Positions 2,781 to 58,024 of a stretch of 64,000 nucleotides of DNA are shown in pieces. Both the position numbers and the translations under genes were made by a program. Under the pieces are notes generated by a model. It was not told the origin of the DNA. It searched no databases and saw only the letters and a program-made list of their open reading frames with translations. Numbering within the stretch: the first letter of the stretch is position 1; every line of letters starts with the position of its first letter. The stretch is taken from the UHGV virus genome UHGV-0291501; one strand, 5' to 3'. This stretch comes from a virus.

Positions 2781-3260
2781 TTAACCGAGGACTTTAGCAA
2801 GGATATTCGCAGCCATCGAAGAAGCTTTTGCAGCAGCAACTACGCCAGCTTTGACAGTGCTATCCTTAATAGCAGATACCGTTGCAGCATCAGTAAAGAG
2901 ATAAGTGATTGTTTTGGAACCACTTGTAAAGGAAAGCATAAGAGTAGTTTCCAGATTGAAAGAGCGATACGGAGCACCTTCTTTAACGATACCTTCAGCA
3001 CCTAACTCTGAAGCCTTACCCATATCATAGATAGTCATCAGGTTTTCTTTGTGTGCAGTCGTTGAACCAACACCTTTTACGTGCTTCTTAACGTTCAACA
3101 ATGCACGATATTCGCGAATGCTACCATCAGCTTTTACATTAACAGCACGGAAAATTTTACCTTCAAAGTTACCTTGAATCATTTTACGAACTACTTCAGA
3201 TTTGTTTGCCGTATCGTCCAGTGCTACCGTAATGATATTGTTCATAAGTTCTTCTCTCAA
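2781..3260 (-). CDS. Hypothetical protein
   Basis: 159-aa ORF; an alternative start at 3245 (MNNIIT) has a better purine-rich RBS. Confidence 0.45.
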   Translation of the reverse strand: MREELMNNIITVALDDTANKSEVVRKMIQGNFEGKIFRAVNVKADGSIREYRALLNVKKHVKGVGSTTAHKENLMTIYDMGKASELGAEGIVKEGAPYRSFNLETTLMLSFTSGSKTITYLFTDAATVSAIKDSTVKAGVVAAAKASSMAANILAKVLG

Positions 3261-35930: not shown

Positions 35931-35958
35931 TTGACATAGAAAATTTGGTGAGTATACT
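35931..35958 (+). promoter_or_regulatory. Near-consensus sigma70-type promoter TTGACA-N16-TATACT
   Basis: Read directly just after the ligase stop; would transcribe into the G/T-rich non-coding region. Confidence 0.45.
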
Positions 35959-36035
35959 GAGCAGCATAAACCAACGGGTACTCACCAGCATCACTTAAGA
36001 GTCTTCTAAGAGGGTTTTTAAGTAATGTGATGTTT

Positions 36036-36119
36036 GGTTTGGTGTGGTCAGGTAATGTGATGTCTGGTTTAGTGCGGTGATGTGCGGTCCGGTAAGGTCC
36101 GGTGCGGTAAAGTGCGGGT
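36036..36119 (+). repeat. Phased pentamer tract 1A: about 17 tandem (G/N)GTNN units
   Basis: ggttt ggtgt ggtca ggtaa tgtga tgtct ggttt agtgc ggtga tgtgc ggtcc ggtaa ggtcc ggtgc ggtaa agtgc gggta; strict 5-bp phase. Confidence 0.7.
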
Positions 36120-36177
36120 AGTTAGTCTCAGCTACATTAAAATGAGACTTACCTTTTTAAAAGGTCTTTAAGAGGGT
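36116..36177 (+). repeat. 62-bp hairpin module, copy 1 (identical to 37527-37588)
   Basis: gggtagttagtctcagctacattaaaatgagacttacctttttaaaaggtctttaagagggt; 7-bp stem agtctca/tgagact; 15-bp palindrome acctttttaaaaggt. Confidence 0.75.
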
Positions 36178-36186
36178 TTTTTAATG

Positions 36187-36270
36187 AGGTAGGGTAAAGT
36201 AATGTTTGGTCTGGTTTGGTAAGGCGCGGTCTGGTTTGGTAAGGTAAGGTTCGGTATGGTATGGGTGGAT
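36187..36270 (+). repeat. Phased pentamer tract 1B: about 17 GGTNN units
   Basis: ggtag ggtaa agtaa tgttt ggtct ggttt ggtaa ggcgc ggtct ggttt ggtaa ggtaa ggttc ggtat ggtat gggtg. Confidence 0.7.
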
Positions 36271-36297
36271 GGTAGTAGCCACGTTAAAAATCTACCA
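36270..36297 (+). other. Stem-loop (6-bp stem, 16-nt A-rich loop) conserved with a compensatory change in region 2
   Basis: tggtag-tagccacgttaaaaat-ctacca here versus tggcag-tagccttataaaaaat-ctgcca at 37671-37698. Confidence 0.5.
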
Positions 36298-36354
36298 AGT
36301 TTCTAAAGAGTCTTCTGTTGAGGGTTCTTTACAAACAACTTAACAATCAACTAA

Positions 36355-36960
<606 letters not shown>

Positions 36961-36962
36961 TT

Positions 36963-37403
36963 ATGAATACAAAAGCATTAGCAGCAAAGTTTAGTTACGG
37001 TGACACTGTATCACATTCTGAGATGGACACCTTCTTAGGTATTGTGAAGCCAACTTATCAAGGTGACATTGTTAAGTACGAAGATGAAATGAAGGCTTAT
37101 GCGCTTACACGTCTAAACCGACTTGAGAAGTTTATTGAGAAGCTTCTTAAAGAAGAGAAGATTTATCTGGTTGCTTCAATGGGTGTTGGTTATCGTGTGG
37201 TTGAACCTAAGCATCAAGCAACTATTGCAAAACGTAAAATGTCTGGTAAAATTGGTCGTGCTTTAAAGCAAGCTACTCAAGCAATTGAGAATGTGAACAC
37301 TATGGCACTTAGCCACCAAGAACGTTCACGACTAATTGAACAGCAAAACCATTTAGCTGCTATGAAAGCTAACATTAACAAGCAACGTAGAAAACCTTTC
37401 TAA
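36963..37403 (+). CDS. Hypothetical protein (cassette gene 2), helical, basic C-terminus
   Basis: 146 aa; tightly coupled to the upstream gene; followed by a terminator. Confidence 0.5.
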   Translation: MNTKALAAKFSYGDTVSHSEMDTFLGIVKPTYQGDIVKYEDEMKAYALTRLNRLEKFIEKLLKEEKIYLVASMGVGYRVVEPKHQATIAKRKMSGKIGRALKQATQAIENVNTMALSHQERSRLIEQQNHLAAMKANINKQRRKPF

Positions 37404-37414
37404 GTTGACTAGGT

Positions 37415-37437
37415 AGCCTCTTCGGAGGCTCCTTTTT
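37415..37437 (+). terminator. Rho-independent terminator
   Basis: Hairpin agcctc-ttcg-gaggct followed by CCUUUUU. Confidence 0.55.
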
Positions 37438-37462
37438 AAAAGGTCTTTAAGAGGGTCTTTTA

Positions 37463-37530
37463 ATGAGGTAGTATACGGTATGGTGGGGTAGGGTGAGGTC
37501 TGGTTTGGTAAGGTAGGGTCTGGTATGGGT
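37463..37530 (+). repeat. Phased pentamer tract 2A: about 13 GGTNN units
   Basis: ggtag tatac ggtat ggtgg ggtag ggtga ggtct ggttt ggtaa ggtag ggtct ggtat gggta. Confidence 0.7.
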
Positions 37531-37588
37531 AGTTAGTCTCAGCTACATTAAAATGAGACTTACCTTTTTAAAAGGTCTTTAAGAGGGT
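37527..37588 (+). repeat. 62-bp hairpin module, copy 2 (identical to 36116-36177)
   Basis: Same 62-bp string as copy 1, compared by eye base for base. Confidence 0.75.
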
Positions 37589-37596
37589 CTTTTAAC

Positions 37597-37665
37597 AAGG
37601 TTAGGTTAGGTCTGGTGTGGTAGGGTTAGGTGGGGTTAGGTTTGGTATAGTTTGGAAGGATGGCA
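37597..37665 (+). repeat. Phased pentamer tract 2B with telomere-like TTAGG/TTAGGG units
   Basis: ggtta ggtta ggtct ggtgt ggtag ggtta ggtgg ggtta ggttt ggtat. Confidence 0.7.
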
Positions 37666-37670
37666 GTAGC

Positions 37671-37698
37671 CTTATAAAAAATCTGCCAAATAAGCTAT
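37671..37698 (+). other. Stem-loop paralogous to 36270-36297
   Basis: tggcag-tagccttataaaaaat-ctgcca; T:A to C:G compensatory pair relative to region 1. Confidence 0.5.
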
Positions 37699-57575: not shown

Positions 57576-58024
57576 TATTCATCTCGCTCGATAATAAATA
57601 CGCCATTAACACGGTTGCAGTAATCTCTGCCTTCGTATCTGGCAGCATCACCATATTCTGTGTATTTCTTGACAGAGCAAGGATTCTGACGACGCATGTC
57701 AATATCACACTGATTAATACCACCTGCATAGGGGAGTCCTGAAACAGAGCTTTTAACAAGGTCATCATAAACAGCTTTCAGAGACTTGAATCTGGAAGAG
57801 TTACGTAAATAAACACCACCAACCTTCTCATCTCCCATCTTGGCTACTTGAAAGAGTAAATATTTAAGAGCTTTGATGGCTGCTTTCTTTTCATCCTTTC
57901 CAGATTCTAGGTAGAACCACTCTAGCACAGACTGTTCAATAAGAATTTCGTCATTATTGGTGTCTGTGCAGAGGATTCTTACTCTATCAAGAGGGTTATT
58001 GGCTGGGTCGCCTGTATAACACAT
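57575..58024 (-). CDS. Head completion/connector protein (by position)
   Basis: 149-aa ORF just downstream of major capsid gene; preferred over the nested 66-aa ORF 57568..57768. Confidence 0.35.
   Translation of the reverse strand: MCYTGDPANNPLDRVRILCTDTNNDEILIEQSVLEWFYLESGKDEKKAAIKALKYLLFQVAKMGDEKVGGVYLRNSSRFKSLKAVYDDLVKSSVSGLPYAGGINQCDIDMRRQNPCSVKKYTEYGDAARYEGRDYCNRVNGVFIIERDE

Follow-up and report, generated by a model that had tools for sequence, protein, structure and literature searches.

A probable type II VIPR locus in a Felix O1-like phage, with two conserved stem-loops as putative pseudoknot tails of its guide RNAs

Genes and repeat arrays at the locus

The window, i.e. the whole stretch of 64,000 nucleotides analysed here (viral genome UHGV-0291501), belongs to a Felix O1-like phage, its best match being Escherichia virus TH10 (98.9%). 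Two ORFs of 195 and 146 aa, named below as vipr and a vap1-like gene, are bracketed by two intergenic regions, the first of which follows the DNA ligase gene and the second the ORF at 36963-37403; genes for unannotated proteins are also present around them. Public records label both intergenic regions merely as 'DR_4' repeats, 'repeat_region' or terminators. They are occupied by two non-coding arrays flanking the gene pair, each array being composed of two tandem modules of 130-160 nt. Every module is arranged in the same way, as a conserved 5' box, a G/T-rich (N-G-T-N-N)n tract and a conserved, hairpin-containing 3' tail. Read in blocks of five nucleotides, the tracts keep a perfect phase and consist of 19, 15, 12 and 11 units, respectively, and an in-phase GT at at least seven of ten slots is found in these four tracts only, over 64 kb and both strands.

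All the features of the locus lie on the plus strand, and the modules are called vrRNA1 to vrRNA4 after the guide RNAs that they are proposed below to encode. The upstream array is preceded by a sigma-70-like promoter (TTGACA-N16-TATACT, 35931-35958, 11 of 12 matches), which is presumably used and is the same as the one preceding vrRNA1 of phage SUSP1. vrRNA1 begins with a type 1 box (CTTAAGAGTCTTCTAAGAGGGTTTTTAAG, 35994-36022), which is conserved in all Felix-like loci in front of a varying tract, and the last two bases of which overlap the first unit of the 19-unit tract (36021-36115). It ends with a type A tail (36116-36158), in which a 7-bp hairpin (36124-36130 with 36143-36149; AGTCTCA-12 nt-TGAGACT) is followed by TACC and a T5 run (RNAfold z = -2.4). 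vrRNA2 is composed of a type 2 box (AAAAGGTCTTTAAGAGGGTTTTTTAA, 36159-36184), a 15-unit tract (36188-36262) and a type B1 tail (36263-36297) with a hairpin at 36270-36275 and 36292-36297. A degenerate copy of the type 1 box, with no tract after it (36303-36332), lies between this tail and vipr (36373-36960), which is followed by the vap1-like gene (36963-37403) and by a terminator-like hairpin (AGCCTCTTCGGAGGCT) with a T run (37415-37430).

The downstream array contains vrRNA3, with a type 2 box (37438-37463), a 12-unit tract (37467-37526) and a type A tail (37527-37569) identical to that of vrRNA1, and vrRNA4, with a type 2 box (37570-37595), an 11-unit tract (37599-37653) and a type B2 tail (37654-37688) whose hairpin is at 37661-37666 and 37683-37688. 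The type A tail is borne by the internal vrRNAs. A search of Rfam returned chance-level matches only (E = 0.7-4.1, far below gathering scores).

When about 20 Felix-like loci are compared, nearly every NN dinucleotide differs, the number of units ranges from 8 to 20 and the number of modules varies, while the period and the flanks are constant. The tails in particular are nearly invariant beside tracts that are scrambled between phages.

A conserved box precedes every tract, and the type 2 box is itself a direct repeat (GGTCTTTAA-GAG-GGTCTTTTAA). They may act as weak promoters (TTAAAA-N17-TTTAAT), in processing or as handles at the 5' end. They also resemble boxA (GCTCTTTAACAA); boxA-like antitermination signals were envisaged and rejected, as the boxes are absent from two unrelated arrays (L042 and L056, see below). 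The available text of the VIPR preprints cited below gives no role for the 5' boxes.

The tract of vrRNA1 has several peculiarities. Its units 1-4 and 7-10 are near-duplicates (xGTAA TGTGA TGTyT GGTTT), which suggests an internal duplication of 30 nt, and seven of its units are TGT or AGT instead of GGY. The same tract is also present in phage ASO1B and in one other locus (L177). Two-quartet G-quadruplexes, which were considered for the tracts, were discarded, as TGT and AGT units are tolerated and it is the T that is conserved.

A protein associated with the 5-nt period

In the Bacillus trp leader, TRAP binds 9-11 (G/U)AG triplets spaced by 2-3 nt, the RNA being wrapped round an 11-mer ring. 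The tracts of the window share with it the 5-nt period produced by a conserved triplet and a 2-nt spacer, and the Vipr filament described below shares with it an oligomer using one subunit per triplet. This analogy led us to look for a protein partner.

IMG/VR was scanned for exact matches to (GGTNN)5GGT, and trivial microsatellites were set aside; many unrelated contigs with diverse-spacer arrays were present among the matches listed. Eighteen loci were picked among these listed matches, by DNA pattern alone. A homologue of the 195-aa ORF is encoded beside the tracts, and on the GGT strand, in 14 of the 18, which pointed to a protein reading the 5-nt period on RNA. Some unrelated IMG/VR phages have arrays far larger than those of the window. 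One (L056, 2213-3377) has about 13 tracts, most of which end with GGTAAGGAATGGTTTAATGAATTTAAT. In L042 (3300-5340), the units end with GGGTAGGG and a T run, without a hairpin, and at least one unit appears to have its own promoter (TTGCAA-N17-TATAAT). L044 (3392-3849) has a run of 91 pentamers. These three arrays are probably other VIPR types with different tails.

In a PDB sequence search, the 195-aa ORF matched chain 36pp_D, 'SUSP1 Vipr protein', with 191 of 195 residues identical (98%; E = 6e-128). The window protein keeps H17, E71, M72, R138, C173, D177, W178 and R179, which are the residues contacting GGY according to the available text of the cryo-EM preprint (10.64898/2026.04.26.720927). 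The 146-aa protein is identical at 145 positions (99%) to the product of the SUSP1 gene located directly downstream of vipr; judging from the two-gene operon that is described, this SUSP1 gene would be the vap1 of the preprint. The accessory protein has no match in Pfam or PDB. Pfam gave nothing for either protein, and PHROGs gave families of 'unknown function' only.

Covariation and predicted fold of the tails

An earlier note on this DNA had reported two stem-loops with 6-bp stems and 16-nt A-rich loops, a T:A pair of the one being a C:G pair at the same stem position of the other. Both are present as described, with the change at stem position 4, each pattern occurring once in the window: the former is TGGTAGTAGCCACGTTAAAAATCTACCA at 36270-36297, i.e. 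TGGTAG-TAGCCACGTTAAAAAT-CTACCA, and the latter is TGGCAGTAGCCTTATAAAAAATCTGCCA at 37661-37688, i.e. TGGCAG-TAGCCTTATAAAAAAT-CTGCCA. A single hairpin of this kind is, on its own, not above chance: the window contains 28 perfect 6-bp stems with a 16-nt loop, when about 16 are expected. The RNAfold z-scores of the two B tails are -0.7 and -0.8, no better than shuffled sequence. The hairpin gains its significance from the comparison among homologous tails.

To this end, the metagenome collection was searched for B tails with the flanks and the loop fixed, the six stem positions and the variable pseudoknot positions being left free. With tails from other loci added, and satellites included, the alignments contain 14 distinct B-type and 16 distinct A-type tails. 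The inner four pairs of the B hairpin are paired in 14 of 14 tails, and two of them covary, the UA to CG pair that had already been noticed and a second one, AU to CG, each changed on both sides. The note had regarded non-compensatory stem changes in further homologues as evidence against its claim; such changes do exist, in the outer two pairs only, which are broken in 5 of 14 tails (satellite variants and an A-C mismatch in phage tootiki), whereas the inner four always pair. The conserved helix is therefore made of 4 bp with two optional pairs. In the tootiki B2 tail (L002, about 3075-3112), TAGCAG replaces TGGCAG, so that stem position 2 holds an A-C mismatch with no compensating change; none of the other Felix-like phages examined shows this.

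A second, putative helix (of a pseudoknot) results when the four nucleotides located 5' of the B hairpin are paired with the 5' part of its loop (GUGG with CCAC in B1, 36265-36268 and 36279-36282; AAGG with CCUU in B2, 37656-37659 and 37670-37673). It is 100% paired over the alignment and contains two covarying pairs. In the type A tail, the 7-bp hairpin is 100% paired with three covarying pairs, one position showing G-C, G-U and A-U, and the equivalent pseudoknot helix (GUAG with CUAC; 36118-36121 with 36132-36135 in vrRNA1) is 98% paired and invariant. G-U pairs are present in the stems of the tail alignments.

Two controls were applied to these pairings, which hold at 93-99% across the 30 distinct tail variants of both types. 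With either alignment, all of 500 shuffles stayed below the observed scores for both pairing and covariation, and sliding the partner strand by one to three columns dropped the pairing of the B tails to 26-54%; that of the A tails collapses too. RNAalifold, which draws no pseudoknots, settles by itself on the pseudoknot helix with the B tails and on the hairpin with the A tails. Single-sequence thermodynamic folding does not favour the B1 hairpin; the register that RNAfold prefers for B1 (GGUGGAU with AUCUACC) was rejected, since none of its pairs covary and the B2 and B3 variants do not sustain it. Taken together, the second covarying pair in the B stem, the three in the sister A stem and the covarying 4-bp pseudoknot helix support the idea, put forward in the note, of a selected RNA or DNA secondary structure.

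Judging from covariation and geometry, the tail would fold as an H-type pseudoknot, even though the published pseudoknot may differ in detail. Stem 1 (4 bp) would be formed by the four nucleotides just 5' of the hairpin and the 5' part of its loop, and stem 2 (6-7 bp across tail types) would be the hairpin initially noticed; loop 1 would have 1-2 nt and loop 3, which is A-rich, 7-9 nt. The stem-loop at 36270-36297 would then be one helix of the 3'-terminal pseudoknot, or 'tail', of vrRNA2, and that at 37661-37688 its counterpart in the tail of vrRNA4. This predicted layout is that of classical H-type RNA pseudoknots, such as viral frameshift and telomerase RNA pseudoknots. What would distinguish the vrRNA tail from these is its place, as it would cap a protein filament at the 3' end of an RNA.

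A probable type II VIPR locus

VIPR (Viral Interference Programmable Repeat) is described in two 2026 bioRxiv preprints (10.64898/2026.04.26.720920; 10.64898/2026.04.26.720927), the available text of which is the source of what follows. It is a newly described RNA-guided DNA-recognition system, from which CRISPR RAMP complexes have been proposed to descend. The Vipr protein is a minimal member of the RAMPs, with an RRM core, a glycine-rich loop and a thumb. In a vrRNA, 9-16 GGY/NN units precede a 3' tail that is invariant and about 40 nt long; in the SUSP1 clade, this tail folds as a hairpin with a pseudoknot. SUSP1 vrRNAs are RNAs of about 100 nt that form an RNP with Vipr, and vrRNA1 in particular was detected by small-RNA sequencing, co-purified with Vipr and resolved by cryo-EM with its terminal pseudoknot. 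Protomers and DNA unwinding resolve towards the 5' end in SUSP1. Most guides of the SUSP1 clade aim at an E. coli satellite phage (10.64898/2026.04.26.720920; 10.64898/2026.04.26.720927).

As Vipr is 98% identical to that of SUSP1, and the product of the next gene identical at 145 of 146 positions, we consider it very probable that the segment 35931-37735 is a type II VIPR locus with four vrRNAs, two before and two after vipr and the vap1-like gene, and that both hairpins take part in tail pseudoknots. The B1 tail is identical to that of SUSP1 vrRNA1 and the B2 tail to that of the last SUSP1 vrRNA; by this sequence identity, the two hairpins are the tails of vrRNA2 and vrRNA4, each of which is the last vrRNA of its own array. 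The molecule forming the hairpin is most probably RNA: the identical tail of SUSP1 vrRNA1 has been sequenced, co-purified with Vipr and seen by cryo-EM, and the stems contain G-U pairs. The hairpin is a small part of the guide RNA, the main feature of which is the 5-nt periodic tract upstream.

By near-identity with SUSP1, for which the preprints show this mechanism, a vrRNA of the window phage would act as a run of 5-nt units, GGY and NN, with one Vipr protomer per unit. The GGY bases would be flipped out and the NN dinucleotides presented, so as to read double-stranded DNA jointly, with one base skipped between dinucleotides, and binding would repress transcription of competing mobile elements. 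The window phage is likewise presumed, by analogy with SUSP1, to express its vrRNAs with corresponding ends and to assemble them into RNPs.

Besides the two proteins and the B1, B2 and A tails, which are identical, the window shares with SUSP1 the location, with the DNA ligase gene on one side and the next early genes on the other, the promoter, the 5' boxes, the GGY/NN tracts and, for one guide, a like satellite-like element in E. coli as a predicted target. It differs in its taxonomic affinity, since the window matches Felixounavirus records whereas SUSP1 is a Suspvirus, in the distribution of the vrRNAs (two plus two, against one plus three in SUSP1), in the sequence of all the NN guides, and in the length of vrRNA1, whose 19 units exceed the published range of 9-16.

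In Class 1 CRISPR systems as in VIPR, a RAMP (Cas7 in the former) assembles along a guide RNA with constant spacing, bases are flipped out by a thumb domain once per period and an invariant structured end caps a variable guide, according to the preprints. VIPR, the guide of which is non-contiguous, has 5-nt units in which three bases do not pair, whereas the period of CRISPR is 6 nt with one such base, and the structured end is a 3' pseudoknot in VIPR but a Cas6-type hairpin handle in CRISPR. A CRISPR array, which would have identical repeats of about 24-48 nt and unique spacers of similar length, was rejected for the window itself, as its modules of 130-160 nt have a 5-nt periodic variable part. 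The locus showed neither a repeat-spacer array nor cas1/cas2 or adaptation genes, and no cas annotation is present around the arrays.

VIPR also differs from TRAP. The VIPR triplet is GGY and not (G/U)AG, the protein is a RAMP forming a helical filament and not a beta-sandwich ring, and the spacers carry information as a DNA guide, whereas those of TRAP are inert, the outcome being DNA targeting and not attenuation. A binding site for a TRAP-like ring protein was rejected: the period was the right clue and the protein family the wrong one.

The hairpin, the pseudoknot, the guide RNA and the protein are thus already described for SUSP1, with a Vipr 98% identical and identical tails, and the tail pseudoknot is the invariant 'handle' of VIPR. 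What is obtained for the window is mostly annotation: two intergenic regions and two 'hypothetical proteins' are named, and one guide is given a target. The additions are an alignment of 30 distinct tail variants, satellites included, compared with five tails aligned in the preprint; the observation that conservation is restricted to four of the six B stem pairs; the assignment of a predicted target to one of the guides; a vrRNA with 19 units; and an orphan vrRNA in the type phage Felix O1.

Alternative explanations for the hairpins

The B hairpins could be intrinsic, Rho-independent terminators ending a non-coding transcript. The sister A tail does look like one, with its 7-bp hairpin, TACC and T5 run and its z-score of -2.4, and it is annotated as a terminator in phage ASO1B; besides, tails do sit at RNA 3' ends, so the A tail may serve as both cap and terminator. 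We nevertheless find this very unlikely for the B hairpins, whose stem has 6 bp, of which 4 are conserved, with a 16-nt loop and no T run, the following sequence being AAGTTTCT after B1 and AAATAAG after B2. They are not called by a consensus scan, and their folding energy is no better than that of shuffled sequence. A terminator would leave the conserved loop sequence and the covarying helix between flank and loop unexplained. It would also oppose the expression of vipr, which begins 75 nt downstream of B1, unless a weak promoter-like site at 36328-36357 is used.

Even less credit can be given to the two other explanations, to about the same extent. The one places the structure in DNA, as an inverted repeat forming a cruciform or a protein site, the 5-bp repeats being iterons of a replication origin or a partition site; a gene for a protein of about 200 aa beside short direct repeats indeed resembles that of an initiator or of a centromere-binding protein. 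However, GGT always lies on the sense strand of the neighbouring gene (14 of 14 unrelated loci), the repeats keep a period of exactly 5.0 without any drift towards helical phasing, the stems contain G-U pairs, and the protein is a RAMP studied with RNA, the SUSP1 RNA having been sequenced and co-purified. Strand bias and protein identity likewise ruled out an R-loop replication origin or iterons. Mimicry of Chi or KOPS, arrays of primase sites and type III toxin-antitoxin repeats had been raised before the protein was identified, and were dropped. The other explanation is that the inverted repeats arose by chance in a duplicated intergenic segment, the 'compensatory' change being two neutral substitutions. 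The 28 comparable hairpins of the window and the unremarkable folding energies go in this direction, and the note had a single covarying pair to rely on. The B stem now has two such pairs, the A stem has three and the pseudoknot helix another two; the pairing of 93-99% over 30 variants is equalled by none of 500 shuffles and collapses on sliding; and the tails are near-invariant beside scrambled tracts. Chance is ruled out by these covariation controls.

Predicted targets of the guides

The four guides were searched with the 1-nt-skip rule against 3.8 Mb of sequence, on both strands, with a criterion of 80% of NN positions. vrRNA3 matches 22 of 24 NN positions in a satellite-like locus (L157, 3535-3569), and 21 of 24 at the homologous site of ten further satellite-like loci devoid of vipr. 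With a skip of 0 or 2, or with reversed guides, at most 18 positions match, and none of 300 order-shuffled guides reaches 21. vipr was absent from the target loci within the stretches examined. One guide of four, vrRNA3, can thus be assigned a predicted target, which fits the targeting of competing elements of the SUSP1 type.

The L157 locus has its own vrRNA with a B-type tail (2900-3260, minus strand), a resolvase-type recombinase and a tape-measure gene. Among 5426 complete E. coli genomes, 539 contain sequence similar to that of L157, but only 9 of these hold most of the query. Four E. coli regions were identified as chromosomal elements of about 11 kb, each with a recombinase gene, or two of them, and with genes annotated as tape-measure and baseplate; these elements fit the satellite described in the preprint. 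Among the satellite-like loci (L144-L186, including L157, and L188-L191), vrRNA tails of metagenome loci show the variants B1b and B3, of SUSP1 type, with stems of only 4-5 bp. In L189, the homologous target site precedes a Dam-like methyltransferase gene by about 155 bp.

The other guides, vrRNA1, vrRNA2 and vrRNA4, gave no confident target in the 3.8 Mb searched, with partial or sub-threshold matches only. There was no self-target in the window at 80% or above, the best self match being at most 75%, and exact 10-unit skip-rule patterns of vrRNA1 and vrRNA4 had no hit in IMG/VR. vrRNA2 matches 23 of 30 NN positions, ten consecutive units being perfect, in an unrelated viral contig of 53 kb (L194, 11971-12014), within a tail-fibre-like coding region; this match is below the 80% criterion and may be due to chance, since the pattern is A/T-rich and about one chance hit is plausible. 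In the four complete E. coli satellite-like elements, 8 perfect units of vrRNA2 are found in one (L190) and 6 of vrRNA4 in another (L188).

vrRNA-like genes without vipr

In phage Felix O1 (NC_005282; L192, L193), one complete vrRNA-like gene lies between the DNA ligase gene and ORF87, on the minus strand (57632-57913, tract 57757-57816). It has a promoter, a type 1 box, about 11 xGY/NN units and a B2 tail. In the 86 kb of Felix O1, tblastn found neither vipr nor vap (best E = 0.36). Other repeats are listed in the Felix O1 genome paper, the available text of which makes no mention of a vrRNA-like element.

Felix O1 may not be an isolated case. Of the 231 records of the phage collection with a DNA match to the window region, only 132 encode Vipr; orphan guides therefore seem common, the absence of vipr having been checked directly for Felix O1 only. 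Roughly a hundred other Felix-like records appear, like Felix O1, to have kept intact the promoter, the GGY/NN tract and the B2-type tail without vipr or vap, gene absence being direct for Felix O1 alone. Satellites devoid of vipr also bear vrRNAs with a B-type tail.

One speculative possibility, which we hold to be rather unlikely, is that the hairpin and pseudoknot of the tail form a portable 'adaptor', orphan guides acting in trans via the Vipr of a co-infecting phage, or as decoys soaking it up. If so, the conserved tail would be the currency of a guide-stealing arms race, more than a structural cap.

Finally, a Vipr gene 99.5% identical was found in a 147-kb record named Staphylococcus phage SA1 (GU169904.1), which suggests that this record contains Felix O1-like sequence.
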